Positions 47,293 through 64,000 of a DNA stretch of 64,000 nucleotides are shown piece by piece. Position 1 is the stretch's first letter, and the number at the start of each line of letters is the position of its first letter. Source of the DNA: an uncultured Flavobacteriaceae bacterium. Its GTDB lineage: Bacteria; Bacteroidota; Bacteroidia; Flavobacteriales; Flavobacteriaceae. The stretch covers positions 5,437 to 69,436 of the forward strand of contig CAVVXE010000004.1 in NCBI GenBank assembly GCA_963752165.1, read 5' to 3'. Below the pieces are notes generated by a model that saw only the letters and a list, made by a program, of their open reading frames with translations, ran no database searches and was not told the origin of the DNA. The translations under genes and the position numbers were made by a program.

Positions 47293-47318
47293 ACAATTAA
47301 ATACTACTCAATAAAAAC

Positions 47319-48953
47319 ATGAAAAACAATTTACTAATGCTATGTATTTTCTTGGCATCGCTATCCTACGGTCAACAGAAAACAACTTCAAACGACACCT
47401 ATGATCTCGTCATTTTAAACGGTCGTGTCATAGATCCTGAAACGCTCTTTGACGATGTCGCAAATGTGGGCATCAAGGACGGTCGCATTGTCGCGATTAC
47501 TAAAAAGGCAATCAAAGGCACAGAAACTGTGGATGCAACAGGTAAAATTGTTGCGCCCGGCTTCATTGATACGCATTTCCACTTTCAAACGCCAATCGGT
47601 TATTCCCTTGGATTGCGCGATGGCCTGACCAGCAGCATGGATTTCGAGATGGGCTGTGCGGGATCCTATATCGACCGCTGGTATAAAGATCGTGCCGGTG
47701 TGACCCAGGCCAACTATGGCATCGCGGTGAGTCACGAGTTTGCCCGCGCAATGTTCATCGACGGTTCAGACGGCGCCGATTACCTGAAAGACGGCCCCAT
47801 AGCCGCTTACACCACCCGGGCGAAAACGGGCTGGAGCCAAACACGTCCCACCCTGGAACAGGGCAACGCAATTCTCCAAGAGATTGACAAGGGCCTACAG
47901 GCTGGTGCCGTGGGAGTCGGCAGCACCGTGGGCTACATGAGAGAGGGCGTCTCTTCACGCGAGATGTTTGAAATACAGAAAGTCGGCGCACGCTATGGTC
48001 GCCCTACCGGCGCACATACACGCTATACGCTTGGCAACGACACACAAGAGAATAATGGCGCGCAGGAACTTATTGCCAACGCCGTGGCGCTTGGCGCCCC
48101 AGCGATCGTCGAGCACTTCAACAACCCCGGCTGGCGCCTTGCGCACGAAATGGTCACCGGGCTTCAAGAGCAGGGCCACAATATATGGGGTGAAATCTAT
48201 CCCTACGCTGCGGGTTCCACCACGATTAATGCTTCGTTCCTGGAGCCTCAAGTCTGGCTCGATGTCATGGGTAATCGCTATGAAGATACCATGCTGGATC
48301 CGGTCACGAATGAGTATTATACCCTGGAGACTTATAAGGCCACCGTCGCATCCGAACCGACCAGGCCGATCGTCATTTTCAAGATGCCCGAGGAAGACCA
48401 GGCGAAGTGGTTGACGCTCAAAGGTGTGACCATGGCCAGCGATGCGGTTGGAGCCACGCCCTACCTCGCACCATGGGATTACCCGATGGACTCACTTGGC
48501 GGCACCCACCCCCGCACGGCTGGTGCCCGAGGCGCTACGATAAGACTAGGTCGGGAAAACAACATCCCGATGATGCAGCTAATGTCGATCCTTAGCTACA
48601 ACGCAGCTAAGCATATGGGCGATACGGGGCTGAAGTTCATGCAAGAGCGCGGCCGCATCCAGACCGGCATGGTTGCCGATATCGTGGTGTTTGACCCGGA
48701 AACCTTCAGGGATAATTCAACCTACCAAAAGGGTGCTGTCCCTTCAACGGGCATGAGAGCGGTGATCGTCAACGGTCAGGTGGTTGTGCGCGACGATGTG
48801 CAACTCCCGGTTTTTCCTGGTCAGCCGATCCGTTTTGAACCGGAAGACAAGCCGCGTTTCGAGCCGATCTCGGTAGAATCGTGGAATGCCCAATTCTCGA
48901 CCGGTATGCCATCTGGATTCACGGGAGGTGTTCCTGAGGACCACAAACACTGA
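47319..48953 (+). CDS. N-acyl-D-amino-acid deacylase (D-aminoacylase)-like amidohydrolase, exported
   Basis: Signal peptide, then YDLVILNGRVIDPE...GIKDGRIVAI...APGFIDTHFHF and C-terminal GRIQTGMVADIVVFDP. The body is GC-rich and the 5' ~80 nt is AT-rich. Overlapping ORFs 47415..48595 are shadows. Confidence 0.75.
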   Translation: MKNNLLMLCIFLASLSYGQQKTTSNDTYDLVILNGRVIDPETLFDDVANVGIKDGRIVAITKKAIKGTETVDATGKIVAPGFIDTHFHFQTPIGYSLGLRDGLTSSMDFEMGCAGSYIDRWYKDRAGVTQANYGIAVSHEFARAMFIDGSDGADYLKDGPIAAYTTRAKTGWSQTRPTLEQGNAILQEIDKGLQAGAVGVGSTVGYMREGVSSREMFEIQKVGARYGRPTGAHTRYTLGNDTQENNGAQELIANAVALGAPAIVEHFNNPGWRLAHEMVTGLQEQGHNIWGEIYPYAAGSTTINASFLEPQVWLDVMGNRYEDTMLDPVTNEYYTLETYKATVASEPTRPIVIFKMPEEDQAKWLTLKGVTMASDAVGATPYLAPWDYPMDSLGGTHPRTAGARGATIRLGRENNIPMMQLMSILSYNAAKHMGDTGLKFMQERGRIQTGMVADIVVFDPETFRDNSTYQKGAVPSTGMRAVIVNGQVVVRDDVQLPVFPGQPIRFEPEDKPRFEPISVESWNAQFSTGMPSGFTGGVPEDHKH

Positions 48954-48969
48954 TCGTGACAATTACACC

Positions 48970-49006
48970 CAACGGGTTAATAAATAGTTTTTTTATTAAT
49001 CCGTTG
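48970..49006 (+). terminator. AT-rich hairpin after the D-aminoacylase-like gene
   Basis: caacgggttaataaa-tagtttt-tttattaatccgttg has one mismatch and is bounded by ACCCAAC ... GTTGCTG. Confidence 0.5.
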
Positions 49007-49033
49007 CTGTTTAAATGAGTAAATAAAATCAAA

Positions 49034-50785
49034 ATGAAAAAAATAGTATTCACACTTTTAGGAATCTTACTATTGCTATCTTCTTGTAAAGAAGGTGCCA
49101 AAAGTAATAAGGAAACGCCTGCGTCTTCTTCTGATATAACCATCTATTATGGTGGTGACATTATTACCATGGAAGGAGAAGAAGCACAATATGCTGAAGC
49201 TGTGGTTCAGCAAAATGGCAAAATCACTTTCGTAGGTACACTAAAAGACGCAGAAAAACAATTTCCCAAAGCCAACAAAAACGATTTGCAAGGCAAAACA
49301 CTTTTACCTGGATTTATTGATGGGCATGGCCACCTTTATCTAACAGGTTTTTACAATATGATGGCCAATCTAATGCCTCCGCCAGATGGAAATTGCAATA
49401 GTATTCAAGGCGTAGTAGATGAGATGAATACATGGAAAGATTCAGAAAAAGGGAAGTTTTTTTTGAACAAGTTTGGATGGCTGGTCGGCTTTGGGTATGA
49501 CGATTCTCAATTGGCAGAAAAAGAACATCCCACGGCCGATGACCTGGACAAAGTAAGCACGGAAGTTCCTGTCATTATTGTACATCAGTCAGGTCATTTG
49601 GGTTCGGTGAACCATAAGGCATTGGAAGTTTTCAATATCACGAAAGAGAGTCAAGATCCAGTAGGAGGTCACATCAGAAAAGATGCCGATGGCAATCCAA
49701 ATGGAATCCTTGAAGAAACCGCATTTCAGCCCTTACAATTGCAAATGTTGCCCAAAATAGACGATGAAATAGATGCTAAAATTGTTGAAAACGGACAAAA
49801 AATGTATGCCCAATTTGGATACACCACTGCACAGGAAGGTGGCGGCGTTACAGGCTTTAACAATTCTTTGAAAAAAGCGGCAGATAACGGAGAACTTTAT
49901 ATAGATTTGGTAAACTACCCGGTTATGGATATGGGCATTGAAGCCATGGACAGCAAGTATTATACAAAAGATCATAGTTACTTGAACCATTATCGTGTAG
50001 GCGGGGTAAAATTAGTATTGGATGGGTCACCACAGGGAAAAACGGCATGGCTTACCCAGCCCTATTTTGTACCACCTTCAGGGAAAGACCATCATTATCA
50101 TGGGTACCCTAAATATACAAAGGAAGATGCGCAAAAATTTATTGATCAGGCGTTCCAAAATCAATGGCAATTATTGGCGCACACCAATGGAGACGCTGCT
50201 GTGGATGAATTTCTTTTCGGCATCAAGGAGGCCTTAAAAAATCATGGCTACGATGATCATCGTTCCACAATAATTCATGGGCAGGTGATTCGGAAAGATC
50301 AGATCCAACAAATCGCTGATTTAAATGTGCTCGCTTCCGAGTATGCGGTACATACCTTCTATTGGGGCGACTGGCATTTAAACTCAGTGCTAGGATCGCC
50401 ACGGGCAGAATACATCTCGCCTACCAGAGACCTTATAGACGCAGGAATTAATTTAACCAGTCATTCAGACTGCCCGGTGATACCCCCCAATTCATTAAGA
50501 ATAATCGATGCTACCACAAACCGGGTAACCCGAAGTGGATTGATACTCGGCCCAGGACAGCGGACGACGCCTTATGAAGCCTTGCTTTCACAAACGCGTT
50601 GGGGCGCTTATCAGTATTTTGAGGAAGACCACAAAGGGACGCTCACCGTAGGCAAATTGGCTGATTTTGTGATTTTAGACCAAAATCCGCTAAAAATTGA
50701 TCCCATGAAGATTCATACCATAAAAGTGGCAGAAACCATCAAGGAAGGGAAACAGGTCTATGAAAATAATGATTCCAATTATTAA
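49034..50785 (+). CDS. amidohydrolase-3 family (YtcJ-like) metallohydrolase, lipoprotein
   Basis: Lipobox LLLSSCKE, then LLPGFIDGHGHL, LVLDGSPQGKTAW, AHTNGDAAVD and a C-terminal GTLTVGKLADFVILD motif. Confidence 0.8.
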   Translation: MKKIVFTLLGILLLLSSCKEGAKSNKETPASSSDITIYYGGDIITMEGEEAQYAEAVVQQNGKITFVGTLKDAEKQFPKANKNDLQGKTLLPGFIDGHGHLYLTGFYNMMANLMPPPDGNCNSIQGVVDEMNTWKDSEKGKFFLNKFGWLVGFGYDDSQLAEKEHPTADDLDKVSTEVPVIIVHQSGHLGSVNHKALEVFNITKESQDPVGGHIRKDADGNPNGILEETAFQPLQLQMLPKIDDEIDAKIVENGQKMYAQFGYTTAQEGGGVTGFNNSLKKAADNGELYIDLVNYPVMDMGIEAMDSKYYTKDHSYLNHYRVGGVKLVLDGSPQGKTAWLTQPYFVPPSGKDHHYHGYPKYTKEDAQKFIDQAFQNQWQLLAHTNGDAAVDEFLFGIKEALKNHGYDDHRSTIIHGQVIRKDQIQQIADLNVLASEYAVHTFYWGDWHLNSVLGSPRAEYISPTRDLIDAGINLTSHSDCPVIPPNSLRIIDATTNRVTRSGLILGPGQRTTPYEALLSQTRWGAYQYFEEDHKGTLTVGKLADFVILDQNPLKIDPMKIHTIKVAETIKEGKQVYENNDSNY

Positions 50786-50805
50786 TAGTTAAAAAAACAA
50801 AAATC

Positions 50806-51735
50806 ATGAAACAATTAAAAACAGTATCTGCTGACAAAAGTATTGCTCAGAAGATCGAGAAAATTACCCAAGGGCTGGTTGGCCGCATTGGTGTGGCTGC
50901 ACAGGAACTTAGTTCAGGGCTGCATGTCAGCATAAATGGCGATGAAACCTTTTGTATGGCGAGTGCTTATAAAGTAGCGATCGCCGCGAAAGTGATGGAT
51001 CTCGTGGACAAAGGGGAACTCAGTCTCGACCAGATGGTCGACGTCCCGCAAGACATGTATGTCGCCGGCGTAGTTGCGATTGCCGAGAGATTCCCCTACC
51101 CCGGGGTCCAGTTCTCGTTAGCGAACTTGATATATCCGATGATCACAGAGAGTGACAACACGGCGACCGACGTTTGCATGAAGCTAGTAGGTGGACCAGC
51201 AGCGGTGACCGAGAACCTCCGCAGGCTCGGGATCACCGACTTCAGAGTCGACAGGCCTGTCCGCGGGATTCTCATGGATTTCTACGGCCTGTCAGCGGTC
51301 AACCCAGTTGCTATCGTTGAGGCCATCGGCAAGAACCCTGCACTGGTGGCGGCCCAGGTTGATTGCAATCTAGACTTCGAGGCGGATCCCCGCGATCACA
51401 CTTCGCCCAATGCGTACCTGCAACTCCTGCTTGCCATCGACAATGGCACGGCGATGAGCCCGAAAAGCCGTGAGTTCCTGCTAGGTGTCATGTCGCGCAC
51501 GCGCACCGGCGATGGCCGACTCAAGGGATTGTTGCCCAAGGGAACGCCCGTAGCACACAAGACCGGAACCTTAGGCGGAGTTGCCAACGACGTGGGCTAT
51601 ATCACACTTCCCGACGGTCGAAGATTTGCCATTGCGGTGTTCACCAACAGCAGCATGACACCCGCTGAGGACAGAGAACGCGCTATTGCAGAAGTTGCCC
51701 GCGCTTTATACGACTTTTACTATCTCCAGTCATAA
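50806..51735 (+). CDS. class A beta-lactamase-family serine hydrolase, copy 1 (no signal peptide)
   Basis: SxxK (MASAYK), SDN (ESDNTA) and KTG (HKTGT) motifs are present. It is GC-rich and starts 20 nt after the upstream stop with MKQLKTVSADKS, which has no hydrophobic leader. Confidence 0.8.
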   Translation: MKQLKTVSADKSIAQKIEKITQGLVGRIGVAAQELSSGLHVSINGDETFCMASAYKVAIAAKVMDLVDKGELSLDQMVDVPQDMYVAGVVAIAERFPYPGVQFSLANLIYPMITESDNTATDVCMKLVGGPAAVTENLRRLGITDFRVDRPVRGILMDFYGLSAVNPVAIVEAIGKNPALVAAQVDCNLDFEADPRDHTSPNAYLQLLLAIDNGTAMSPKSREFLLGVMSRTRTGDGRLKGLLPKGTPVAHKTGTLGGVANDVGYITLPDGRRFAIAVFTNSSMTPAEDRERAIAEVARALYDFYYLQS

Positions 51736-51762
51736 GGCAAATAAGATTTTTCATGCATAAGA

Positions 51763-51812: not shown

Positions 51813-51861
51813 GGTTCTCATATCAGATAAACTCAATTATTAATATTTAAAAAATAGAATC

Positions 51862-52848
51862 ATGAAAAAACACATTGTACTTTTATTTACTGTAATAATC
51901 TCGTCATTATTTGCAGTTCAACCGGCATTAGCTCAGAAGCAAAATATAAAAGATGTTTCTCAGAAGATAGAGAAACTTACGGAGAAGCTGGTTGGCCGCA
52001 TTGGTGTGGCTGCACAGGAAATTGGCGGCGACGAGGTCATCGCGATCAATGGTGATGAGACCTTCGCCATGGCCAGCACCTATAAGGTGGCGATCGCCGC
52101 GAAAGTGATGGATCTCGTGGACAAGGGGGAACTCAGTCTCGATCAAATGGTCGACGTTCCGCAAGACATGTATGTCGCCGGCGAAGTTGCGATTGCCGAG
52201 AGATTCCCTTACTCTGGGGTCCAGTTCTCGTTAGCGAACTTGATATATCCGATGATCACAGAGAGTGACAACACGGCGACCGACGTCTGTTTGAAGCTGG
52301 TAGGTGGACCAGCAGCAGTGACCGAGAACCTGCGCAGGCTCGGGATCACCGACTTCAGGGTCGACAGGCCTGTCCGCGAGATTCTCATGGATTTCTACGG
52401 CTTGCCAGCGGTCACCCCGGAAGCTATCGTTGAGGCCATCAGCAAGAACCCGGCACTGATTGCGGCCCAGCTTGATCCTAATCCGGACTTCGAGGCGGAT
52501 CCCCGCGACCATACAACGCCCAATGCATACCTGAAACTCCTGCTTGCCATAGACAATGGCACAGCGATGAGCCCTGAAAGTCGTGAGTTCCTGCTGGGCG
52601 TCATGTCGCGCACGCGTACCGGCGCCGGCCGACTCAAGGGATTGCTGCCGAAGGGAACGCCCGTAGCGCACAAGACCGGAACCTTAGGCGGAGTTGCCAA
52701 CGATGCTGGCTATATCACGCTCCCTGATGGTAGACGATTTGCTATCGCCGTGTTCACCAACAGTAGTGAGACGCCCTCTGCTGACAGAGAACGTGCTATT
52801 GCGGAAGTTGCCCGCGCTTTATATGACTTTTATTATTTAAAGTCATAA
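51862..52848 (+). CDS. class A beta-lactamase-family serine hydrolase, copy 2 (with signal peptide)
   Basis: MKKHIVLLFTVIISSLFAVQPALAQ leader (AT-rich), then a GC-rich body about 9 in 10 residues identical to copy 1. Motifs MASTYK, ESDNTA, HKTGT. Confidence 0.85.
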   Translation: MKKHIVLLFTVIISSLFAVQPALAQKQNIKDVSQKIEKLTEKLVGRIGVAAQEIGGDEVIAINGDETFAMASTYKVAIAAKVMDLVDKGELSLDQMVDVPQDMYVAGEVAIAERFPYSGVQFSLANLIYPMITESDNTATDVCLKLVGGPAAVTENLRRLGITDFRVDRPVREILMDFYGLPAVTPEAIVEAISKNPALIAAQLDPNPDFEADPRDHTTPNAYLKLLLAIDNGTAMSPESREFLLGVMSRTRTGAGRLKGLLPKGTPVAHKTGTLGGVANDAGYITLPDGRRFAIAVFTNSSETPSADRERAIAEVARALYDFYYLKS

Positions 52849-52884: not shown

Positions 52885-54153
52885 TTGAGTAAACAAGACA
52901 GAATAAACGAGATGCTAAACTTAGTAACTCCCATGAGCAAATGGAAAAAGCCGCAATCAGTTGATTTTGTTGATGCTGCTACAAAACGATATAGTTTTCC
53001 AAACTGGCAATCAGGAAGCGAAGATTCCATTTATTACAATTTACATATACCGGAATTTTTTAAATGTTGTGTGGTGCCAGCACCAGCGAATTCAACTACT
53101 ATAGAACGAGATCTTCATCCTGATTTATTGGATATAACTTTTACTGCATTTGACGGAACTACTACGCCTACTTTAAAAGAGTATTTAGGGGGAAAACGGC
53201 AGGTGCAAGCCATGATGATGGCGCACAAAGGAAAAGTGGTCTTTGAAACGTATCCGGGAATGAATCCAAATGATATACACATATGGATGTCGGCAGCTAA
53301 AACAACGGTGGGTTTATTGATTATGCTTCTTGCTGAAGATGGTAAGATAGATCTTGAAAAACCAATACCTACCTATGTACCAAGGTTAAAAGGTTCAGCT
53401 TGGGAAAAGGTAAGTGTAAAAAATGCCATGAACATGTCATCCGGACTTGATATTGAAGAAACGATAGAGAATCTATTGAATCCAAAATCCTGGATTGCGA
53501 ATTGGTTTACCGCTGCTTTTGAAGAAGGAAAAGGGGATTGGATAGCAATGGCTCAAGATGCACAACCTTTACCAAATGAATCTCCAGGTGAGCGTTTCAG
53601 ATATTCTGGTGCTAACACCATGATGCTGGTGCTTGTCACGGAACATGTAACAGGTATGCGGTGGCAAGAATACTTTAATGAACGCGTATGGTCTAAGATG
53701 GGAGCAAAAGGACAGTTCATTTGTGCACTTGCAGAGGGTATTCCATTAGGTGCAGGGCTTCACAATTGTACACCGGAAGATTTTCTTCGTTTTGCATTAA
53801 TACATACACCAAGCTGGAATGCAGTAGCAAGCGAACAGATCGTTTCAGATAATGTACTTAAAGCCATCCAAGATCTAGGAAACCATAAAGCCTATAAAGG
53901 ATCTACAGAAGAACAGTATGGTTCCGATTGGTTTGGAGAAGTTCCGGAAAAAAATACAGCACAATGGGATCATTATTTTCCTGATGGAGGCATGTTCAAA
54001 CACGGAAATATGGGGCAAGGGATCTATGTAGATCCGAAGCGTGACTTTTGTGGAATATACTTTGGCTTAGCCCCAAATCAAGATGAAATATCGGGAATCG
54101 ATCATTCACCCGGGTATTTAAGAGCTGCAGCGAAAAAGTTAGCAGGGAAATAA
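52885..54153 (+). CDS. beta-lactamase-related (class C / DD-peptidase / esterase-type) serine hydrolase
   Basis: 422 aa (TTG start in the track). SxxK motif in IWMSAAKTTVGLLI and general family-VIII esterase/aminopeptidase-like layout; no signal peptide. Confidence 0.65.
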   Translation: MSKQDRINEMLNLVTPMSKWKKPQSVDFVDAATKRYSFPNWQSGSEDSIYYNLHIPEFFKCCVVPAPANSTTIERDLHPDLLDITFTAFDGTTTPTLKEYLGGKRQVQAMMMAHKGKVVFETYPGMNPNDIHIWMSAAKTTVGLLIMLLAEDGKIDLEKPIPTYVPRLKGSAWEKVSVKNAMNMSSGLDIEETIENLLNPKSWIANWFTAAFEEGKGDWIAMAQDAQPLPNESPGERFRYSGANTMMLVLVTEHVTGMRWQEYFNERVWSKMGAKGQFICALAEGIPLGAGLHNCTPEDFLRFALIHTPSWNAVASEQIVSDNVLKAIQDLGNHKAYKGSTEEQYGSDWFGEVPEKNTAQWDHYFPDGGMFKHGNMGQGIYVDPKRDFCGIYFGLAPNQDEISGIDHSPGYLRAAAKKLAGK

Positions 54154-54167
54154 TAAATTAGTATAAG

Positions 54168-54208
54168 AAAAGGGCTCTGCCCGTAAAGCAGAGCTCTTTT
54201 AAAATGGA
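54168..54208 (+). terminator. hairpin element copy 1 (terminator-like, repeated three times)
   Basis: gggctctgc-ccgtaaa-gcagagctc followed by ttttaaaa. Related copies lie at 56168-56220 and 57576-57620. Confidence 0.65.
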
Positions 54209-56220: not shown

Positions 56221-57570
56221 ATGAAAAACTTAAAAATGAAACTACTAACCACAGCAATTGCCTTGATTGGATGGTATTCGGTCGCTATTGCACAGGACAA
56301 GCCAAAACAAATTACACTTTTTACCAATGTACAGGTATTTGATGGCGTATCCGATAAACGGTTCAAATCGGATGTTTTGGTTGAAGGAAACATCATCAAA
56401 CAAATATCTAAAGAACCTTTGATGGTTGCACAAACTGATAATGTGACCATCATAAACGGTGAAGGGCGCACGCTGATGCCTGGCCTTACAGATTGTCATT
56501 GGCACAGCATGGGGGCCTATATGACTGAGAACCCGTTTGCGGCTGGTGCGGGCAAACTAAATCTCGTGGCGGTCCATGGGTCGGAAAAGACGCTTATGCG
56601 GGGCTTCACCACAGTGAGAGACGTGGGCGGCCCTGTATTTGATGTAAAGGCGGTAATCGACGAGGGTATGTTCGTTGGCCCCCGGATCTACGCTGCGGGT
56701 TCGATGATTTCCCAAACATCTGGACATGGCGATTTCCGTAGCCCGATTGATATCCCTCAAAGCTATTCACGACAGCTTACTCCGCAAGAAAGGATGGGTA
56801 CGGTCGCGATCGCAGACGGCAGGGCACAAGTCATGCAGCGCGTGCGCGAGAACCTGATGCATGGGGCGGCCTTTATCAAGCTCATGGGCGGTGGAGGTGT
56901 CGCTTCCCCTTCGGATCCTCTCGACGTATCGCAATACACCATCGATGAAATCGCTGCAGCAGTTGAAGTCGCGGAGAACTGGGGCACCTATGTGACCGTT
57001 CACTCCTATACCGCGAAGGCGATCCAGAACGCGATCCGCGGCGGTGTCCGTAATGTAGAGCACGGCCAGTTGATTGACGAGGAAACAGCAAAACTTATGA
57101 AGGAGAAGAATACTTCAGTTGTTATGCAGCCCTTCTATAACGATGAGGATGCCATCCCACTGCCAAAAGGTTCATTTGCGGAAAAAAAATACCAGCAACT
57201 GATCTCAGGAACCGATAATGCCTACGCCTTAGCAAAGAAATATAACTTGCTCCTCGGATTTGGGACAGATTCGCAGGGTAATCCGGCACTCGCAGAGCGT
57301 CAGGGGGCTCAGTTGGCGAAGCTCGTCCGCTATTTCGAGCCGTGGGAAGTGCTGAAGATTGCGACCAGCCAGAACTATCAGATCATGAAGCGTTCCGGGC
57401 CTCGTGATCCCTATCCCGGTGAGAACGGTGTGGTTAAAGAAGGTGCATTAGCCGACCTGCTTTTGGTAGACGGAAATCCCCTGGAGGATATTGACCTCAT
57501 TGCCGATCCGCATAAAAACTTCGTGATCATCATGAAAGACGGCGTGATCTACAAAAATTCTATAAAATAA
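56221..57570 (+). CDS. amidohydrolase-family metallohydrolase (Xaa-Pro dipeptidase-like), exported
   Basis: Signal peptide, then PGLTDCHWH, VTVHSYT, NVEHG and a C-terminal GALADLLLVDGNPLEDI motif. The first ~250 nt are AT-rich and the remainder GC-rich. Confidence 0.8.
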   Translation: MKNLKMKLLTTAIALIGWYSVAIAQDKPKQITLFTNVQVFDGVSDKRFKSDVLVEGNIIKQISKEPLMVAQTDNVTIINGEGRTLMPGLTDCHWHSMGAYMTENPFAAGAGKLNLVAVHGSEKTLMRGFTTVRDVGGPVFDVKAVIDEGMFVGPRIYAAGSMISQTSGHGDFRSPIDIPQSYSRQLTPQERMGTVAIADGRAQVMQRVRENLMHGAAFIKLMGGGGVASPSDPLDVSQYTIDEIAAAVEVAENWGTYVTVHSYTAKAIQNAIRGGVRNVEHGQLIDEETAKLMKEKNTSVVMQPFYNDEDAIPLPKGSFAEKKYQQLISGTDNAYALAKKYNLLLGFGTDSQGNPALAERQGAQLAKLVRYFEPWEVLKIATSQNYQIMKRSGPRDPYPGENGVVKEGALADLLLVDGNPLEDIDLIADPHKNFVIIMKDGVIYKNSIK

Positions 57571-57575
57571 AAAGA

Positions 57576-57620
57576 AGAGAGCTCTGCCCGTAAAGCAGAG
57601 CCTCTTTAAAACAGAAAATT
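57576..57620 (+). terminator. hairpin element copy 3
   Basis: agagagctctgc-ccgtaaa-gcagagcctct followed by ttaaaacagaaaatt. Confidence 0.65.
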
Positions 57621-57799
57621 AAGGCAATTTTAAAAAACAAACCGCTTTTTCTTTTCGCCTTTGGTTTTGTTTTGACTAAATAACGACAAGAAAATTGTGT
57701 GTCACATCCAAAATGATCTATGATAAATAGATGAACAAAAGTTTATAAACAAAAAGGACGCTTCAATAAGAGAAGTATTCTTTAATACAGATAGCTAAA

Positions 57800-59380
57800 A
57801 TGAAAGAATCAAATATGAAAGAATCAAATATGTTCGATGACGACGCGGCCAGCCTCGCGCGGCTGTGCGACACCGGCCTATCCCTAGACCCGCAGCGAAT
57901 CGCCCTCATCCAGGACAAGCGGTCCATGACGTATGCAGAGCTCGAGCAGCGCATCAATCGGGTCGCCAATGGGCTGATCTCGCTCGGAGTAGAGCCGTTC
58001 GAGCGCGTCCTCGTCATCTTCGAGAACGACATCCGCTTCCCCGAAGTCCTGCTCGGTATCGTCAGGGCCGGCGCCGTAGCGGTCCCGGTCAACTTCAAGT
58101 TCAAGTTGCCGCAGCACATCGATCTGGCTCAGGACTGTGGGAGTCGCATCATCTTCGGCAGCGCCGGGATGGCCGAATCTGTCCTCGGCTGCCTGGCCGA
58201 GGGGGGTGCCGAGGTCGGTATCGTCGTCGATGCCGACCGGGGTCCGCTTCGAAGCTATGAGGACTGGCTGGCCTCATCTTCGCCCGAACACTGCGATCAT
58301 GGGTCGGCCGGCAGGGAGGTCTGCATCCAGGCGTACACCTCGGGCTCGACCGGACGGCCCAAGGGGGTTCTTCTCTCGCACCGTGGGCTTCTGCGTAACG
58401 CTCAGCTCCTGGCGGAGTACAACCGGATCGACGAGAACTCACGGGTCTTGTTGTCGACGCCGCTCTTCCACATGAACGCCACTGGCGCGGGGCTCCTCCC
58501 ATGCCTGAGCCAGGGTGGCTCGGTGGTCATTCTCAAGGAGTTCGACGCGGAGCGCGTGATCGACGCGATTGAGACGCACGGCTGCACGTACACCACCGGT
58601 GTACCGGCCACGTACAAGCTGATTCTGGATGCCGCGCGACAAAGAACGCAGGTGGATGTCTCCAGCCTCGAGTTCATCACAGTGGGGTCTGCTCCCATGA
58701 CACGAGCGCTTCTCGACGAACTGGTCCAGACCTTGCCGGGTGTCGATGTGATCGAAGGGTACGGGCTGACGGAATCTGGGCCCATCATCACCATGAATCC
58801 ACGCGGCCGAAACAAGCTGGGCACGATTGGTCCCGCTCTTCCGGGCTTCGAGTGCAAGGTCATCGACTCCGACGGGAACATTTTGCCACAGGGAGAGGCG
58901 GGAGAACTTGTCGTGCGGAGCGAGTGCAACGCCCTCGGCTATTACAACCGGCCGGACGCCCAGGCAGAGCGCTTCCGGGACGGCTGGGTGTATACCGCGG
59001 ATATGGTGTCGTGCGACCCCGACGGCTGGTTCACCTTCAGGGGGCGCGTCGACGACCAGATACAAGTGGGAGGCGAGAACGTCTTCCCGGCCGAAGTCGA
59101 GAACATCCTCTCCACGAATCCGGAAGTGCGGGACGTCTGTGTCGTTCCTGTACCCCACAAGGTGAAGGGCCAGGTTCCGGTGGCATTCGTGGTACGCAAG
59201 GTCGGGTCGAAGCTCAGCGAGAAGGAACTTATCGACTACTACATTGAGCGCGGACCCGCGTATTCCCATCCGCGCCATATCTACTTCATCGACGAGATGC
59301 CACTCTTGGGGACCAAGAAAACAGACCTGAAGGCTCTTCAAAGACAGGCTCTTGAAAGGCAGGCTCGCGAGTCAGGTTAA
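57800..59380 (+). CDS. AMP-dependent synthetase/ligase (acyl-CoA synthetase, ANL superfamily)
   Basis: AMP-binding signature YTSGSTGRPKGV plus GYGLTESG and a C-terminal LGTKKTDLKAL-type lysine region. It is very GC-rich and carries many shadow ORFs. The true start may be ATG 57830 (MFDDD...). Confidence 0.85.
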   Translation: MKESNMKESNMFDDDAASLARLCDTGLSLDPQRIALIQDKRSMTYAELEQRINRVANGLISLGVEPFERVLVIFENDIRFPEVLLGIVRAGAVAVPVNFKFKLPQHIDLAQDCGSRIIFGSAGMAESVLGCLAEGGAEVGIVVDADRGPLRSYEDWLASSSPEHCDHGSAGREVCIQAYTSGSTGRPKGVLLSHRGLLRNAQLLAEYNRIDENSRVLLSTPLFHMNATGAGLLPCLSQGGSVVILKEFDAERVIDAIETHGCTYTTGVPATYKLILDAARQRTQVDVSSLEFITVGSAPMTRALLDELVQTLPGVDVIEGYGLTESGPIITMNPRGRNKLGTIGPALPGFECKVIDSDGNILPQGEAGELVVRSECNALGYYNRPDAQAERFRDGWVYTADMVSCDPDGWFTFRGRVDDQIQVGGENVFPAEVENILSTNPEVRDVCVVPVPHKVKGQVPVAFVVRKVGSKLSEKELIDYYIERGPAYSHPRHIYFIDEMPLLGTKKTDLKALQRQALERQARESG

Positions 59381-59810
59381 GGAACGGGGCCTTCTCCGCT
59401 CCCCCGCTGAATTGCCATAGCGAGTGTTTACCGGACTTGGAGCCCGGGACGGGGCTTGCATCGCCTACCCACGATGATAATCGATCAGGACATCGGCACC
59501 GTCAAGAAGTCCTTCCCGCTGACCCGGTTGGCCAGGTTGTCTTTATTGTCGATGCAGAGGTAAGGGGTGCTAAGGCGTGGGATCTCTTCAAAAAAGGGGC
59601 TTTCCTTTTCGCATACAGAAGGGATTACTGATTGGAATTCGCTTTTTCAATGAGTTCTTAACAGTACGTCGGGCCCTGGCGGGATTGATGACGTGCAACC
59701 GCATTTTGCAATAAAAATGACAATAGTAGCAACTGATCTACTGATCCAAGTTACTTTTCCTTCTTTATTTGTAAGCGGAAAATTTTTTCTGTTTATAAAT
59801 AATTTTTTGA

Positions 59811-59879: not shown

Positions 59880-60018
59880 ACGCAATCAAGTTGAGCACAA
59901 GCTTTGACCTAAAAAGGTCAAAAAACAAAATTATTTGATTTGGATTCCAGTTTTCACTGGAATAACATTTTATCGGATACCTCGAGGCAGAGCCTAGAGG
60001 AATTCTTTTTGATTAAAT

Positions 60019-60426
60019 TTATATACTTGTTGAATTTCCTTGTTCATCGATATGAACAAATATCATTTCAGTTGCACATACCTCTTTCTGTGACCTTGTG
60101 TTAAACACTTGTACATACATTGTTATTGAAGTTTTACCAATGCCTGTAATGGTACCGTTGATACTTATAATGTCCTTAACTTTTACAGGGGCTTCAAATA
60201 ATACTTCACTCATTTTCAATGTAACAACTCGTCTATGACCAATTACCTGAGAGACGTGTCCAGATGCAGCTTCATCAATCCATTGTAAAAGGAATCCACC
60301 AAATAAATTATCATTAAGGCCAACATCTTTAGTCATGCAAACCTTCTTTTGCATGAGTTGACGTTCTAAGTACCCTTGATCTATTCCTAGTCTTTTGCAC
60401 TTAGCATTTATATCTTCATTTACCAT
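60019..60426 (-). CDS. acyl-CoA thioesterase, hotdog fold (YciA-like)
   Basis: 135 aa. LFGGFLLQWIDEAASGHVSQ...VVTLKMSEVLFEAPVKVKDIISING pattern. Confidence 0.7.
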   Translation of the reverse strand: MVNEDINAKCKRLGIDQGYLERQLMQKKVCMTKDVGLNDNLFGGFLLQWIDEAASGHVSQVIGHRRVVTLKMSEVLFEAPVKVKDIISINGTITGIGKTSITMYVQVFNTRSQKEVCATEMIFVHIDEQGNSTSI

Positions 60427-60442
60427 TTTATCCTATAATTTG

Positions 60443-60646
60443 TTAACACTCAACTGCTGCTTGTAAGCAGCTTGCTTTATTATTTGATACTCTATTTACC
60501 AATCCCCACTGATAAGCTTTATCTATAGCTATAAAAGTACCTGAATAGATAAGCTCTTTTGCTCGGTAGCGACCAATGTATTTTGGAAGTCTTTGGGTTC
60601 CACCAAAAGCAGGTAATACACCCCCATTTAACCTTAGGCTGTCCAA
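60443..60646 (-). pseudogene. internal fragment of an enoyl-CoA hydratase/isomerase (crotonase) gene
   Basis: LNGGVLPAFGGTQRLPKYIGRYRAKELIYSGTFIAIDKAYQWGLVNRV is the crotonase core. There is no N-terminal half upstream, where the GC-rich porin gene stop lies at 60717, and the frame ends prematurely. Confidence 0.65.
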
Positions 60647-60716
60647 AAACTGCTTGCTTCATTGCAAAAATAAAATCCCTAGGGTGCATTTGGGCGCATC
60701 CGGGCCTCTGTTGGGA

Positions 60717-62093
60717 TCAGAATGTCATTTGGCCTCGCAAACCGAACACGGCTACAGCATTCTTGTCGGGGTTCAAAGCCGGATTAAAAACAATTTGCAG
60801 GTTGGGCGACATCCTTAGGTTCTCGGTAACCTGGATCCTGAAGTAGACCTCGCTTATCCATTGGTCGTTGAGGTCGACCCCGAACGTAGCCGAATTAGGG
60901 CTGCCCCAGTTGAGGCCGACGCCAAGCTGGTGACTGCCGGGCTTGCTCTGGTATCCAAAACCAGCGCTTACCGCCTTATCGTAAAGGCCCCCGCCTTCAT
61001 GAGCCCAAGCGGCACGCAAGAACGGCAACCAGTGATTGCCCACAACATGGGAGAAAGACACATTGACGCCCCATCCGCTCTTCACGCCGCTAACGTCACT
61101 ATCATCCTGCTGCCAGACCGCGATATGCGCATTGTTGAACAAAAATCGCTTGCCACCTTCGGTGATCCCGATCTCCACGCTCTTCCAGGTGTTGAAGTCA
61201 CCGAAGAAAGTCTCGAAGCCGCTGAACATGGATGTCGGCTGGAAACCGGCGTCGATGATGCTGGCCGCCGCATAAACGTGGTCGGTCAGATAGCCGCCGA
61301 TCATCACGCCAAGCGCAGCGTCCGGCAACGTAATCATCGTGTTTGAGCCGATGGTAAAGGCCAGATTGTGAAAGCCGCTCCAAGGACTGGCCAACGCGTA
61401 AATATCGAAATATTCCTTCATATCAAGAAAGCCGACACGGAAGACAGCACGGTCCTCGGCGAAGACCTGCTTCCAATAGAGCGTGGTCGCGCGAAAGTGA
61501 TCGTTGTTGAAGACAGGTTCTGGCGTACCGACAAACCCGACTTCTACGCCGAAGGCTGCCGGTAAGATGTCGGTGTAGGCGTGCCGGTGTTCGATCTTGA
61601 ACTCAATGCTACCGGTGTTCGCTTTGCCGCGGTTCAGCAAGTCCCAGCCCCCAAAGAAGCGGAAGACCCCAGAGGCCGATGTGTTTTCGCCGAGGCTGTT
61701 GGTCGCGGCGAAACCCACTGCGAGGTAATCGCCGCCGAACCTGAGCCCTATGCTATCGGCAATACCAGCCTTCCATTTTTCCCACGGTTCGAGGAGATTG
61801 AGGTTGAAAAGATCTTTCTTCTCCTCGCGAGTATCCCTCAGGAGCGTATTAACTGCGTCGGGTCCACTCAAAGGGTCATGTTTAAGGTCCTGCGCGAAGG
61901 CAGGTTGCCAGCACATAGAGAATAAGAGCGCAGCCAGTGCCGCGACTCTCAGCCTTGGTGACAACAGGGCGTCTGCCGCACAGTAAAGATGCCCAAGGAG
62001 GGCGTTTCGCCCGGCGCTCAGACAAGAGCAACAGCCGACTTGGTCCAGGCGGCTGCGCATCGTGATTAAGGAAGATTGTAGTAAGCTCATCAT
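60717..62093 (-). CDS. carbohydrate-selective porin OprB-family-like outer-membrane channel
   Basis: GC-rich ORF ending in ...VFGLRGQMTF, with the leader RLRVAALAALLFSMCWQPAFAQ. Start placed at MMSLL (62093), but MRSRL (62060) is also possible. The track ORF start 62207 reads through a crotonase remnant in another frame. Confidence 0.6.
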   Translation of the reverse strand: MMSLLQSSLITMRSRLDQVGCCSCLSAGRNALLGHLYCAADALLSPRLRVAALAALLFSMCWQPAFAQDLKHDPLSGPDAVNTLLRDTREEKKDLFNLNLLEPWEKWKAGIADSIGLRFGGDYLAVGFAATNSLGENTSASGVFRFFGGWDLLNRGKANTGSIEFKIEHRHAYTDILPAAFGVEVGFVGTPEPVFNNDHFRATTLYWKQVFAEDRAVFRVGFLDMKEYFDIYALASPWSGFHNLAFTIGSNTMITLPDAALGVMIGGYLTDHVYAAASIIDAGFQPTSMFSGFETFFGDFNTWKSVEIGITEGGKRFLFNNAHIAVWQQDDSDVSGVKSGWGVNVSFSHVVGNHWLPFLRAAWAHEGGGLYDKAVSAGFGYQSKPGSHQLGVGLNWGSPNSATFGVDLNDQWISEVYFRIQVTENLRMSPNLQIVFNPALNPDKNAVAVFGLRGQMTF

Positions 62094-62094
62094 T

Positions 62095-62256
62095 TTAGGA
62101 TCTTGTAAAAACTGGGTGTCTTTTCTCAACAAATGCTTTGGTACCTTCTGCTTTGTCATGAGAGTTAGCAACCACTCCAAAAACTGTTGCTTCCTGGTGG
62201 ATACCATCTTTATCGTATGTATTGATTGTTTTATAACTAGTACTCATTTTTTTCAT
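62095..62256 (-). pseudogene. C-terminal remnant of a crotonase-fold gene
   Basis: 53-codon AT-rich ORF: MKKMSTSYKTINTYDKDGIHQEATVFGVVANSHDKAEGTKAFVEKRHPVFTRS. EG..AF.EKR.P.F is the canonical crotonase C-terminus. Confidence 0.5.
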
Positions 62257-62307
62257 TTAATATTTATCTAATTGTTTGTTTTTCTACTGGCTTACCCCAT
62301 TCTCAAG

Positions 62308-62337
62308 TTACCTCCAGGCGCGTTTGCCTGGAGGTAA
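62308..62337 (-). terminator. perfect 12-bp-stem hairpin downstream of the MarC gene
   Basis: ttacctccaggc-gcgttt-gcctggaggtaa. Confidence 0.5.
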
Positions 62338-62409
62338 GCATTGGATAAGCTTTTGTTGTCGTTTGATGACATCAATTAGCAGGCTGCAGCCGCCATTGTA
62401 AATGGTAGC

Positions 62410-63039
62410 TTAGCCCTTGGCTGGAAGTTCTTGCAGTACCCCGAGATCGGTTAGACCCCAAATCATCAACTGAATCCCCAAAGCGACTAGCAATAATCCC
62501 ACAATAACTGACACCACTTTAAGCGCTGCCGGGCCTATCGCGCTAAGAATCTTATGCGCCCCCAAAAGAAAGACAAAGTTAAATGCCATAACCGCGAGTA
62601 TCAATCCTATCATTAACGCCATTTCACTCGTTCCAGGTGCGGCTGCAGATAAGGTAACAATCGCAACAAGGCCATGAGGTGTTGCCATCAATGGCATGGC
62701 CAGAGGGAAAACGGCGATATTGGGCGATAGTTCCACATCGGCGTTCGCCCCTTCTTGTGACTTGCTTCCAAGCACCATTTCGAGTGCATAGAGCATCAAA
62801 ATAACTCCCCCTGCAAACTTCAAAGCGGGAATTGATATGTGAAACACATCCAGCAGGAATTCGCCGGCAACCACAAAAAGGATTGATACGATAGTTGCTA
62901 CTAGCACCGTTCTTATAGCGATGCGGCGCCTTAAGCCGGCATCGGCATCGGATGTCAATGTAGCATACACAATTGCCGATTTAAGCGGCCCCAGAGTAAT
63001 TAAAAAAATTACAAAAAGTTCTGATATTCCAAAATTCAT
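62410..63039 (-). CDS. MarC-family (UPF0056) integral membrane protein
   Basis: 209-aa polytopic protein. N-terminal FVIFLITLGPLKSAIVYATLT resembles the MarC family start. Confidence 0.7.
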   Translation of the reverse strand: MNFGISELFVIFLITLGPLKSAIVYATLTSDADAGLRRRIAIRTVLVATIVSILFVVAGEFLLDVFHISIPALKFAGGVILMLYALEMVLGSKSQEGANADVELSPNIAVFPLAMPLMATPHGLVAIVTLSAAAPGTSEMALMIGLILAVMAFNFVFLLGAHKILSAIGPAALKVVSVIVGLLLVALGIQLMIWGLTDLGVLQELPAKG

Positions 63040-63212
63040 CTTTTTACTTTATTTAGTTATGTTTTTTTATTTTCTCAGTAGGTCAGCTCAAGGCTGAAAA
63101 CTGATGGCTATTTAGCTTTCCATCCTGGTGCAAGTTTTTCTGCAAAAGCACGGGTACCTTCTGTGCGTCGATAGGTCTATTGGTATCTTATCAGGATGTT
63201 AATCCCAATTAA

Positions 63213-63237
63213 AGAAGGTCGAAAATCTCGACCTTCT
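63213..63237 (-). terminator. terminator of the enoyl-CoA hydratase gene
   Basis: agaaggtcga-aaatc-tcgaccttct has perfect 10-bp arms, followed on the minus strand by tttaatt. Confidence 0.6.
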
Positions 63238-63303
63238 TGCACCATTCGTTCGGCAACTCAGGCATCACAGCTCGAGTAACCCCTCGCTTTGTAAGTAGCA
63301 AGT

Positions 63304-64000
63304 TTATTTTGGAAACATGCAACCAACAAATTTTGACGTGTCCAGCGGGTCTTGAAAATTCGCTTTGCGCTTATTTATGAAAGCGTCGGCTCCCTCGTGG
63401 AGGTCCGGCGTACGTTGTAGCACATCGAGCACGTTAAGCAGCTTCGCAATCGCCTGCTCCTCTGGCAAGTAAATACCATATCGCAACGCCTGCTTAGCGG
63501 CACAGATAGCCTGCTTTGGAGCGCTTGCAAGCCTTGCAGCAATTTTTTGTGCATTTGCAACCACCTCGCCCTTAGGCTTAATATGATTCGCGTAGCCCCA
63601 TGCAAGTGCTTGTTCTGCATCAATCATATCGCCCAGTAAAAACAACTCACTGGCACGACCAATACCGATACGCCTTGTTATACGCACTGAGCCTCCACTA
63701 CCAGGTATGGCGCCAAGGTTTATTTCGGGAACACCGAATTTTGAATTTTCAGCAATAACAATGATGTCAGCGCCGGCTGCAAGTTCCATACCTCCGCCTA
63801 GCGCATAACCTTCAATAGCCGCGACTGTGGGTTTCGGGAAATTGGCAAATTTGGTGAATGTTACGTTCTCAGGACCGAGCTTGGTAGACACGACGGTACC
63901 ATCCGCCATAAGTCCTGGAAATTCATGGATGTCAGAACCGGTTCCGAAAGCGCGTTCACCGTCGCCTGTGAGTACAACCGCCCCTATCGCTGGGTCAGCC
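63304..64000 (-). CDS. enoyl-CoA hydratase/isomerase (crotonase) family protein, N-terminus beyond the right edge
   Basis: The frame stays open upstream of the track's Met: ...DPAIGAVVLTGDGERAFGTGSDIHEFPGLMADG...AAIEGYALGGGMELAAGADIIV...EGADAFINKRKANF. Confidence 0.85.
   Translation of the reverse strand, partial: ADPAIGAVVLTGDGERAFGTGSDIHEFPGLMADGTVVSTKLGPENVTFTKFANFPKPTVAAIEGYALGGGMELAAGADIIVIAENSKFGVPEINLGAIPGSGGSVRITRRIGIGRASELFLLGDMIDAEQALAWGYANHIKPKGEVVANAQKIAARLASAPKQAICAAKQALRYGIYLPEEQAIAKLLNVLDVLQRTPDLHEGADAFINKRKANFQDPLDTSKFVGCMFPK

Follow-up and report, generated by a model that had tools for sequence, protein, structure and literature searches.

We analyzed a stretch of 64,000 nucleotides (nt) from an uncultured Flavobacteriaceae bacterium (GenBank assembly GCA_963752165.1, contig CAVVXE010000004.1; here called the window), in which the region from 47.3 to 64 kb, the island, is a patchwork of GC-rich and AT-rich DNA. 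This patchwork records repeated two-way gene exchange and is not an assembly error. Each GC-rich block is the body of a gene or genes exchanged among at least nine phyla, whose synonymous divergence is far below saturation; the AT-rich blocks consist of other genes of the cluster, which are of Bacteroidota type, together with intergenic DNA and signal-peptide leaders of host type. The region is probably a chromosomal catabolic cluster of a Eudoraea-like flavobacterium that was built from a cross-phylum gene pool, in two parts: a row of secreted amide-hydrolase genes (part A, 47.3 to 57.6 kb; amiA, ytcJ-like, bla1, bla2, serH, and amiC) and an acyl-coenzyme A (CoA) module (part B, 57.8 to beyond 64 kb), which starts with an acyl-CoA ligase gene.

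The preliminary description of this DNA had reported that the composition flips repeatedly, and block GC contents, 200-nt sliding windows, and GC content at third codon positions (GC3) all bore this out. Over the coordinates named in that description, mean GC was 0.554 (47.40 to 48.95 kb), 0.556 (50.85 to 51.80 kb), 0.560 (51.99 to 52.85 kb), 0.525 (56.47 to 57.57 kb), 0.606 (57.83 to 59.65 kb), and 0.557 (60.65 to 62.06 kb) in the GC-rich blocks and 0.411, 0.386, 0.295, 0.367, and 0.336 in the AT-rich stretches (49.0 to 50.8, 52.86 to 56.47, 57.57 to 57.83, 59.65 to 60.65, and 62.06 to 62.3 kb, respectively); the segment from 62.3 to 64.0 kb was intermediate (0.474). The profile swung between about 0.30 to 0.41 and 0.53 to 0.61, with 13 switches within 16.7 kb. 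Sliding windows with a GC of at least 0.55 made up 29.5% of 47.3 to 64 kb versus 0.4% of 1 to 47.3 kb, and switches of state (from 0.42 or less to 0.52 or more) were found 7.8 versus 2.3 times per 10 kb. GC3 split the genes in the same way (GC-type genes, 0.54 to 0.77; AT-type genes, 0.25 to 0.38; backbone, about 0.25 to 0.55), so the shift is a property of the DNA and not an amino-acid effect. Long open reading frames (ORFs) in multiple frames, taken earlier as spurious and as a high-GC signature, were likewise seen over the GC-rich blocks (e.g., an antisense ORF of 300 amino acids [aa] at 58439 to 59341). The blocks tracked gene bodies rather than whole ORFs: in genes for secreted proteins, the GC-rich part began 75 to 250 nt past the start codon, after the signal peptide, and stopped at or just past the stop codon. 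The AT-rich stretches had been called host-like; they are of Bacteroidota type, but they are not inert, as they hold genes of the same cluster (a ytcJ-like gene and a PF00144 hydrolase gene, and in relatives amiB). The GC content of the backbone is itself uneven, with means of 0.433 in the core-gene part (1 to 25000) and 0.368 in the part with peptidase and DUF6090 genes (25001 to 47300) and a dip to 0.29 at 9 to 10 kb; host-like composition is therefore a range and not one value.

Members of the Eudoraea group inherit the mosaic, and a cultured isolate carries it. Eudoraea adriatica DSM 19308 (L009) has the genes in the same order, with GC contents of 0.54 (amiA), 0.41 (ytcJ), 0.54 (bla1), 0.54 (bla2), 0.40 (serH), and 0.51 (amiC), and its hydrolase genes were 86 to 92% identical to the window at the nucleotide level. 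Two contigs of sample ERZ25039603 added to this: one of 75 kb (L090) matched 41866 to 52843 at 99% and crossed the boundary between backbone and island, and one of 8.8 kb (L089) matched 55495 to 59800 at 98% and 60013 to 64000 at 92% and so covered all junctions of the right half; its jump from 98% to 92% is a signature of recent recombination. The remaining junctions were spanned by L001/L034, L023, and L028. A chimeric metagenome assembly, in which reads of high-GC organisms became fused into a flavobacterial contig where the two share genes, would suit a window that is part of a 71,975-nt contig of a metagenome-assembled genome (MAG) and has frameshifted genes typical of long-read error, and related loci often lie at contig ends with adjacent contig numbers, as if the cluster acted as an inter-genome repeat. 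However, the isolate has the same mosaic, order, and per-gene GC, every junction is spanned by independent contigs at 92 to 99% identity, and the composition junctions often lie inside ORFs that stay intact. A chimera is thus excluded on the strength of the isolate and of L001, L023, L028, L089, and L090, and we give such an origin next to no weight.

We assessed how widely the genes are shared by a scan of one genome per species with an alignment of bla, which gave 78 loci, and by comparing co-occurrence and individual genes over 80 loci; the contig look-up started from the cluster representative of bla1, the exact bla1 giving no record. Most partners in the bla scan were long-read MAGs with isolate names starting with MFD, for which we presume an origin and habitat as in Microflora Danica, a Nanopore study that used 154 samples from soil and sediment (PMC12313526); the main text of that paper does not name the three sample IDs involved. 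Overall, the GC-rich genes had nucleotide identities of 84 to 95% and synonymous divergences (dS, by the method of Nei and Gojobori) of 0.1 to 0.5 to genomes of other phyla, some of them from Planctomycetota and Alphaproteobacteria isolates. The bla protein was found at 80 to 91% aa identity in at least nine phyla (in Flavobacteriaceae, Cytophagales, Marinilabiliales, Calditrichia, delta- and Gammaproteobacteria, Chloroflexia/Anaerolineae, Planctomycetota, Acidimicrobiales [Actinomycetota], Acidobacteriota, and Gemmatimonadales) and at 63 to 78% in many Rhodobacteraceae isolates, Bythopirellula, Desulfosarcina, Vibrio atypicus, and others. For single genes, dS was 0.10 (ligase, Acidobacteriota MAG) and 0.19 (ligase, Tateyamaria isolate), 0.19 (amiC, Gammaproteobacteria MAG), 0.24 (bla1, Chloroflexia), 0.23 (bla2, Calditrichia), 0.24 (OprB, Tateyamaria), and 0.41 (amiA, Gemmatimonadales); as a yardstick, AT-type genes of the window and E. 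adriatica differed by a dS of 0.28 to 0.34. Between isolates, E. adriatica and Bythopirellula polymerisocia shared amiA (84% nt identity, dS of 0.53) and bla (84%, dS of 0.37), and E. adriatica and Roseibium aggregatum shared amiA (two copies, dS of 0.51 to 0.55). Such comparisons of isolates with each other are free of metagenome artifacts. In tiles of 150 nt, other phyla were matched only by GC-type genes and a few AT-type genes. The partners that recurred in the cluster over the loci were amiA-type genes, amiC, and two PF00144 types, in variable order.

Trees of bla and amiC (neighbor joining on identity distances, without support values) mixed phyla, with Bacteroidota alleles in at least two groups nested among high-GC lineages, a pattern that favors import into Bacteroidota and is compatible with a possible secondary export to Chloroflexia. 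Bacteroidota alleles were 5 to 8 GC points below the alleles of high-GC hosts, which suggests partial amelioration. Exchange runs both ways, as AT-type genes also enter high-GC genomes: ytcJ, at a GC of 0.44 and 86% aa identity, lay inside Gammaproteobacteria MAG loci of GC 0.55, and the AT-type gene amiB (GC 0.42; in L001 and not in the window) had 91 to 92% nt identity in Acidobacteriota and Gammaproteobacteria loci of GC 0.55 to 0.60. A block of AT-type amiB and GC-type bla, including its internal composition junction, was 92.5% identical over 2.63 kb between a Marinilabiliales and an Acidobacteriota contig and was internal to long contigs in both. At least one two-gene block of both compositions thus moves between phyla as a unit, and part of the patchwork may have been imported ready-made. 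Several acquisitions from high-GC donors had been proposed from the sequence, and this stands insofar as the GC-rich genes are xenologues, belong to wider families in high-GC phyla (Proteobacteria, Planctomycetota, Acidobacteriota, Gemmatimonadota, Actinomycetota, and Chloroflexota), and have cross-phylum dS values of 0.1 to 0.5; it has to be qualified in that bla1 and bla2 are paralogous and most events predate this genome. The mosaic is older than the genome, the exchange is two-way, and part of the blocks may have been imported preassembled instead of being put together in this locus. Best hits confined to Flavobacteriia of similar composition had been named as evidence against transfer; the top hits were indeed Flavobacteriaceae (97 to 98% aa identity), but the next tier crosses phyla, so that these best hits do not refute horizontal gene transfer (HGT).

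Local recombination, which had also been proposed, left several scars. The amiA gene is a hybrid in which the upstream region, start, and signal peptide match amiB of L001 (L001 3255 to 4034 versus window 46809 to 47588, 82% by blastn) and the body is of the cross-phylum GC type; the crossover, at about 47470 to 47560, is the first composition junction. The 744 nt at the 3' end of serH are duplicated at 95% identity on both sides of a 1.25-kb insert, and both the insert and the same junction were present in the Flavobacteriaceae MAG L028. Fragments of a second enoyl-CoA hydratase gene (ECH2) flank the OprB gene in permuted order, and L089 has a complete ECH2 after ECH1. The duplicated start of an amiC-type gene at 57555 to 57642 is the scar of a paralogue that was replaced by the CoA module, of which it forms the left edge; E. 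adriatica has an amiC paralogue at this position. Positional replacement by a xenologue was seen only at the amiB'-'amiA hybrid and at this amiC-paralogue scar, and gene order varied between hosts; AT-type and GC-type versions of serH and amiB/amiA hybrids both exist. We propose that segments the size of one or a few genes would be taken up through recombination, with homologous genes of the cluster or paralogues as anchors, by homology-facilitated illegitimate or Campbell-type integration or by crossover between paralogues. Resident promoters and signal peptides would thereby be grafted onto imported mature domains, and integration would leave partial duplications and gene fragments behind. 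In other hosts, in which the CoA module is flanked by insertion sequences (IS), transposition probably mobilizes it. The genes would keep much of their source composition because the transfers are recent relative to amelioration.

The features of the island and of its left neighborhood are listed in Table 1, with gene assignments from Pfam, NCBIfam, and PDB sequence searches.

Table 1. Features of the island and the adjoining backbone (positions in the window)
Feature	Position	Strand	Assignment and remarks
AT-rich leader/promoter region with 81-aa ORF (47047-47292)	46809..47318	+	Homologous to region upstream of AT-type paralogue amiB in Flavobacteriaceae contig L001
amiA, D-aminoacylase-family amidohydrolase, 544 aa; GC-rich block 1	47319..48953	+	NF006560, Pfam Amidohydro_3; GC 0.54, GC3 0.61
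ytcJ-like Amidohydro_3 lipoprotein, 583 aa; AT-type	49034..50785	+	PF07969 (E 6e-110); GC 0.42
bla1, class-A beta-lactamase-like, 309 aa, without signal peptide; GC-rich block 2	50806..51735	+	NCBIfam class A; GC 0.545
bla2, tandem paralogue of bla1, 328 aa, signal peptide; GC-rich block 3	51862..52848	+	NCBIfam class A
serH, PF00144 serine hydrolase (CubicO/class-C-like), 422 aa; AT-type	52885..54153	+	Pfam PF00144; GC 0.40
Terminator-like hairpin after serH	54148..54204	+	Repeat D7; 77% copy after amiC at 57555-57611
Secreted 281-aa protein in 1.25-kb insert	54310..55155	-	No Pfam or NCBIfam match
5'-truncated duplicate of serH 3' end, pseudogene scar flanking insert	55417..56162	+	95% to 53420-54163; repeats D1, D3, D6
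amiC, Amidohydro_1, prolidase/ochratoxinase/carboxypeptidase type, 449 aa; GC-rich block 4	56221..57570	+	NF051886, PF01979
Duplicated hairpin, ribosome-binding site, and first codons of amiC-type gene	57555..57642	+	Repeats D4, D7; L001 12245-12326 versus window 57571-57642
Class I adenylate-forming acyl-CoA ligase, 526 aa; GC-rich block 5	57800..59380	+	PF00501, PF13193; GC 0.61, GC3 0.77, highest of the blocks
GC-rich 3' flank cotransferred with ligase	59381..59540	+	Nucleotide matches to other genomes
4HBT (hotdog) thioesterase, 135 aa; AT-type	60019..60426	-	PF03061; GC 0.34; same gene in L089
ECH2 fragment (residues ~113-205, frameshifted), scar	60422..60701	-	tblastn with Vibrio ECH2; 86-87% nt to L087, L088
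OprB-family porin, ~436-441 aa; GC-rich block 6	60717..62042	-	PF04966; 496-aa ORF overextends upstream
ECH2 C-terminal fragment (residues 224-262), other side of OprB, scar	62098..62214	-	tblastn, blastn
MarC/NAAT-family membrane protein, 209 aa; intermediate GC	62410..63039	-	PF01914, TIGR00427
Enoyl-CoA hydratase ECH1; intermediate GC	63304..64000	-	PF00378; runs off window end
DUF6090 paralogue	25634-26440		
DUF6090 paralogue	30256-30969		
DUF6090 paralogue	30976-31734		
DUF6090 paralogue	36243-37001		
M19 peptidase	26678-27892		Left of island
S41 peptidase	28337-30037		Left of island
Amidohydro_1	34008-35288		Left of island
S9 peptidase	40294-42333		Left of island
Intergenic repeat pair	36161-36453 and ~46496-46789		
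Intergenic repeat pair	42353-42443 and 46436-46526		
Shorter intergenic repeat copies	near 37170, 38000, 38680, 42420, 43950, 44110, 44810, 46070		

In part A, amiA scored 342.7 bits with NF006560, barely above the cut-off of 340, which places it in the Amidohydro_3/PRK09061 subfamily. Its relatives in the PDB were N-acyl-D-Glu deacylase, D-aminoacylase (3gip and 1m7j), and OngB (E values of 1e-17 to 1e-20, partial); the likeness to the D-aminoacylases of the amidohydrolase superfamily is at family level and weak (E of about 1e-20, partial). In Planctomycetota, Alpha- and Gammaproteobacteria, Gemmatimonadota, and Acidobacteriota, amiA was found at 80 to 87% aa identity (dS of 0.41 to 0.6). The ytcJ-like protein was 90 to 95% identical in Flavobacteriaceae, and bla1 starts 20 nt past the ytcJ stop (50785 to 50806). 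The nearest non-Bacteroidota alleles of bla1 were those of Chloroflexia (dS of 0.24). The cores of bla1 and bla2 were about 91% identical at the nucleotide level (direct repeats D2/D5, spacing of 1113 nt), and both copies were already present in E. adriatica. The 309-aa form of bla1 also occurred in E. adriatica and other Flavobacteriaceae, with a ratio of nonsynonymous to synonymous divergence (dN/dS) of 0.07 to 0.10, i.e., under purifying selection. SerH was 89 to 98% identical in Bacteroidota and 69 to 73% identical to the GC-type orthologues of other phyla, with saturated dS. The 281-aa protein of the insert was 24 to 28% identical (blastp) to a small putative outer-membrane family that co-occurred with the cluster in 21 loci. 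From the serH duplicate onward, window positions 55417 to 57587 matched L001 11502 to 13670 at 94.6% (blastn). The first ~150 to 250 nt of amiC were AT-rich and its body was of the GC type; it was 91.3% identical at the nucleotide level to a 'Proteobacteria' MAG, with a dS of 0.19 to the Gammaproteobacteria MAG. Its PDB matches were 3mkv, 3feq, 4c5y, and 3be7, a family-level likeness to the Sgx9260/Cc2672/ochratoxinase group (3mkv, 3feq, 4c5y, and 3mtw).

The ligase that opens part B had homologues at 80 to 83% aa identity (Tateyamaria pelophila and Vibrio aestuarianus), followed by an abrupt drop to ~50%. At the nucleotide level its region matched Tateyamaria at 89% (over 1712 nt), L008 at 89.8%, and L087 at 94.5%, and its cross-phylum dS was 0.08 to 0.21. 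The dN/dS of the ligase to its closest cross-phylum relatives was 0.3 to 0.65, versus 0.1 to 0.3 for the hydrolases, which points to relaxed or adaptive evolution after transfer. A GC-rich element of 45 to 70 nt in the 3' flank (59404 to 59473) had 90 to 95% copies at intergenic sites of two high-GC genomes, three in L008 (16026 to 16068, 17208 to 17260, and 19177 to 19224) and two in L087 (including 9602 to 9669); possibly this is a short repeat that moves together with the CoA module. Folded as DNA, 59381 to 59540 gave a z-score of +1.0, with no structure and no attC-like or terminator signal. OprB was 84% (nucleotide) and 75% (amino acid) identical to the IS-flanked Tateyamaria copy, with the dS of 0.24 given above, and ECH1 was 79 to 80% identical at the aa level to V. 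aestuarianus and 91 to 92% to an Acidobacteriota MAG and a Bythopirellula isolate. IS elements flanked the homologous CoA module in Tateyamaria (L005), L087, and L088: in Tateyamaria, OprB, MarC, and the ligase sit between them, and in V. aestuarianus, L087, and L088 the neighbors of the ligase are ECH1, ECH2, a CoA-transferase, and MaoC, with transposases nearby in L087 and L088. The CoA-transferase and the MaoC hydratase continue the module in relatives. The module was missing from the E. adriatica locus and from L001 and present in L089 and L054.

The bla-like proteins have the class-A motifs SxxK, SDN, and KTG (S72TYK, S135DN, and K271TG, invariant in 50 sequences of the family) and scored 226 (bla1) and 232 bits (bla2) with the class A model NF033103 (cut-off, 200); no specific named beta-lactamase family reached its cut-off with them. 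An AlphaFold2 model of bla2 (pLDDT of 77), used in a fold search against the PDB, confirmed a class-A fold with a helical insertion in the Omega-loop, the geometry of the active site being beyond the resolution of the model. The R-x-(D) and R-D-x-T-T-P ends of the loop enclose this insertion, which has ~32 residues and is predicted to be helical. The nearest structures were a Chitinophaga enzyme (6v4w), LRA-5, TLA, PER, and PBP-A (TM-scores of ~0.7 to 0.87). The family is thus like subclass A2 (PER, VEB, TLA, and CGA/CIA), LRA-5, and PBP-A in its motifs, NCBIfam class-A score, and fold and differs from them by an identity of ~30%, the insertion, and the lack of a conserved Glu at the likeliest Glu166 position. 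PBP-A acts as a DD-peptidase. With a variable candidate for Glu166 and with LRA-5 and PBP-A as neighbors, beta-lactamase activity of the bla-like genes in the window is putative only. LRA-5 is a poorly active beta-lactamase precursor according to one report (PMC12777564).

The company that bla keeps bears on the function of the cluster. Around bla in the 80 loci, D-aminoacylase-like enzymes were found in 58 and amiC in 42, besides two PF00144 types, DcaP-like porins, MlrC, M19 dipeptidase, ThrE, and small outer-membrane proteins. Known activities in these families include N-acyl-D-amino-acid deacylases, D-stereospecific PF00144 peptidases, M19 dipeptidases for L-Xaa-D-Xaa, MlrC from microcystin degradation, and amidohydrolases of the Xaa-Pro/Xaa-Arg carboxypeptidase type. 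Judged by family membership, the cluster may serve the periplasmic breakdown of amide or D-amino-acid peptides or N-acyl compounds, as in bacterial necromass, and the CoA module may activate the released acid to its CoA thioester, which would then be hydrated. The phenylacetate (paa), carnitine (cai), and itaconate pathways were considered for the module and not adopted, each gene set being only partly present. Tentatively, the island might be a node of a sediment-wide cross-phylum network, in which hydrolase genes and small preassembled AT/GC blocks pass as cassettes among at least nine phyla, in both directions and without a recognizable mobile element, integrate on homologous cluster genes, and gain the promoter and signal peptide of the recipient; as cargo they would share a set of tools against recalcitrant amide or D-amino-acid peptides, including an undescribed class-A-fold clade with an expanded Omega-loop. 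Searches of the accessible literature yielded no account of this cluster.

Several observations weigh against our reading of the region as the product of such exchange and against the functions proposed. No vehicle came to light: no ORF of at least 120 aa in the window had an integrase or transposase Pfam domain, no island-bounding repeats and no inverted repeats beyond terminator-like hairpins were found in the window (the right end of the island lies outside it), distant-mode blastn of PLSDB with both island halves revealed no plasmid carrier (all matches were remote, at 64 to 72% to rhizobial and Vibrionaceae amidohydrolases), and the IMG/VR contigs held no relatives of bla or the ligase that would indicate a viral carrier. 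With neither a mobile-element gene nor a tRNA, bounding repeat, plasmid, or viral carrier, the recombination mechanism depends on the scars. Nanopore MAGs of the same few samples make up most of the cross-phylum partners, many loci lie at contig ends, and some labels (e.g., that of L012) and very low dS values could be affected by misjoins or cross-polishing. Instead of grafting, rapid change in sequence free of constraint could explain the AT-rich signal-peptide leaders, except in amiA, for which the hybrid was observed. As for bla, the residue that best fits the general base Glu166 of the Omega-loop, the Glu of 'REILMD', is E, G, or Q, and the deposited mutants V166E and L158E of LRA-5 and PBP-A indicate wild types without Glu there. 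The missing vehicle also bears on whether the island is a conventional mobile element (an integrative and conjugative element, integron, or composite transposon) with hallmark genes decayed or outside the window. The contig does run ~8 kb past the window, and IS elements border the CoA module in Tateyamaria, L087, and L088; however, the window has no IS copies flanking the module, its 64 kb are free of integrase, transposase, and tRNA genes (tRNA and Rfam scans of the window gave no match), and the left backbone is core chromosome (dnaN, mnmE, and gld). Nor is it an integron cassette array by its content, as there is no integrase domain and only terminator-like hairpins follow the genes, although no dedicated attC model was used. 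A conventional element is improbable.

Two histories without repeated exchange are also to be weighed. One all-GC-rich cluster, of the kind seen in Gamma- and Alphaproteobacteria, could have entered an ancestor once, the AT-rich genes being later native insertions or strongly ameliorated. High-GC genomes do hold amiA, amiC, GC-type serH, and bla together (e.g., L018, L019, and L013), and in its hydrolase part the mosaic is older than the divergence of the window from E. adriatica. However, the GC-type genes have different nearest foreign relatives and widely differing dS (ligase, 0.08 to 0.2; amiC, 0.19; bla, 0.23; amiA, 0.41), AT-type serH and ytcJ are not ameliorated copies, given saturated dS and 69 to 73% aa identity to their GC-type orthologues, and neither the patchy presence of the CoA module nor the recent recombination seen in L089 (98% at 55.5 to 59.8 kb versus 92% at 60.0 to 64.0 kb) fits a single entry, which we consider unlikely. 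Native vertical inheritance, with selection on conserved enzymes as the cause of both high GC and cross-phylum identity, could draw on the purifying selection evident from dN/dS values of 0.1 to 0.3 and on the position of the cluster near mnmE in both L001 and the window. Yet the GC3 shift is as great as the overall GC shift, cross-phylum synonymous sites are unsaturated (dS of 0.1 to 0.55), the distribution is patchy and the trees are incongruent, and whether a given gene makes an AT-rich or a GC-rich patch varies with the host; this account is scarcely credible. Repeated two-way exchange thus remains our preferred reading.

The host and the chromosomal setting agreed with the flavobacterial locus that had been proposed. 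The left part of the window is core chromosome, with mnmE, dnaN, gldF/gldG-type gliding ABC components, superoxide dismutase, and PfkB, and the nearest relatives, taken from clusters at 90% identity, were Eudoraea, Lutimonas, Namhaeicola, and 'Flavobacteriaceae bacterium.' An AT-rich, peptidase-rich stretch (M19, S41, S9, Amidohydro_1, and four DUF6090 paralogues) adjoins the core part, and the entire stretch from 25 to 47 kb resembles a peptide-degradation neighborhood. Just left of the island, families of intergenic repeats (~65 to 290 nt, 78 to 97% identical), noticed as secondary blastn matches of contig L090, are scattered in the AT-rich backbone. At 17400 to 20333, PhoH-like and SAICAR-synthase coding sequence is split into many short, frame-shifting ORFs, and dnaN (13487 to 14446) is apparently short at its N terminus; this suggests long-read indel errors or pseudogenes, whereas the island genes are intact.

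Among the related loci, L011, L012, L016, L023, L034/L001, L040, L041, and L090 lay at contig ends, and contigs of different phyla in the same samples carried adjacent numbers (3986/3987/3988, 8224/8225, and 2389/2390); it seems that long-read assemblies break or become tangled at the shared genes, which would behave as repeats between genomes. L012, labeled 'delta proteobacterium' and 92 to 98% identical to the window including AT-type genes, was set aside as evidence of export, as the match occupies the last 11 kb at the end of its contig, where a misjoin is possible. Cluster genes were also found on contigs of 1.7 to 3 kb in public MAGs labeled Paracoccaceae, Lysobacterales, Desulfobacteraceae, and 'Proteobacteria' (P0021, P0025, P0038, and P0078); either the genes are truly present there or composition-based binning misplaces the contigs.

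If repeated exchange is the right reading, ordinary chromosomal nutrient-scavenging genes, and not only plasmid resistance genes, circulate among most major phyla of a coastal or sediment community, on a timescale comparable to species divergence. E. adriatica, Bythopirellula, Roseibium, and Tateyamaria would then offer a culturable system for transfer without obvious vehicles. Compositional patchworks would be portable and bidirectional, which would complicate GC-based inference of donors and binning, and such clusters would be sites at which long-read metagenome assemblies break. The cluster would also hold an uncharacterized, very widely shared family with the class-A beta-lactamase fold, of which beta-lactam or D-peptide activity would be of interest.

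The closest known concept is the mosaic operon formed by HGT and xenologous gene displacement in situ, as reportedly described by Omelchenko et al. in Genome Biol in 2003, a term that other papers use as well; in this genome the region is neither a classical island nor an integron or a transposon. Like mosaic operons, it is a conserved cluster in which neighboring genes have differing distant affinities, as seen in per-gene identity and GC over the 80 loci and in the tiles, and in which AT-type and GC-type orthologues (serH) occupy the cluster in different hosts. It differs from them by its spread over at least nine phyla at a dS of 0.1 to 0.5, by two-way, mirror-image mosaics, by fluid gene order, and by breakpoints inside genes after the signal peptide. 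With classical genomic or catabolic islands and IS-bounded composite transposons it shares atypical composition, accessory metabolic cargo, and, in other hosts, an IS-flanked module; unlike them, the window has no integrase, tRNA target, IS, or bounding repeats, and its composition alternates gene by gene and not as one block. The polysaccharide utilization locus for porphyranase, said to have been transferred from marine bacteria to gut Bacteroides, is similar in that nutrient-acquisition genes were grafted into Bacteroidota loci; that transfer reportedly took place within one phylum on an identifiable mobile element, whereas here it is between phyla and the vehicle is not evident. What is unusual in the present region is the breadth of at least nine phyla, the relatively recent date, the two-way direction, and the grain of single genes and parts of genes, with no evident vehicle.

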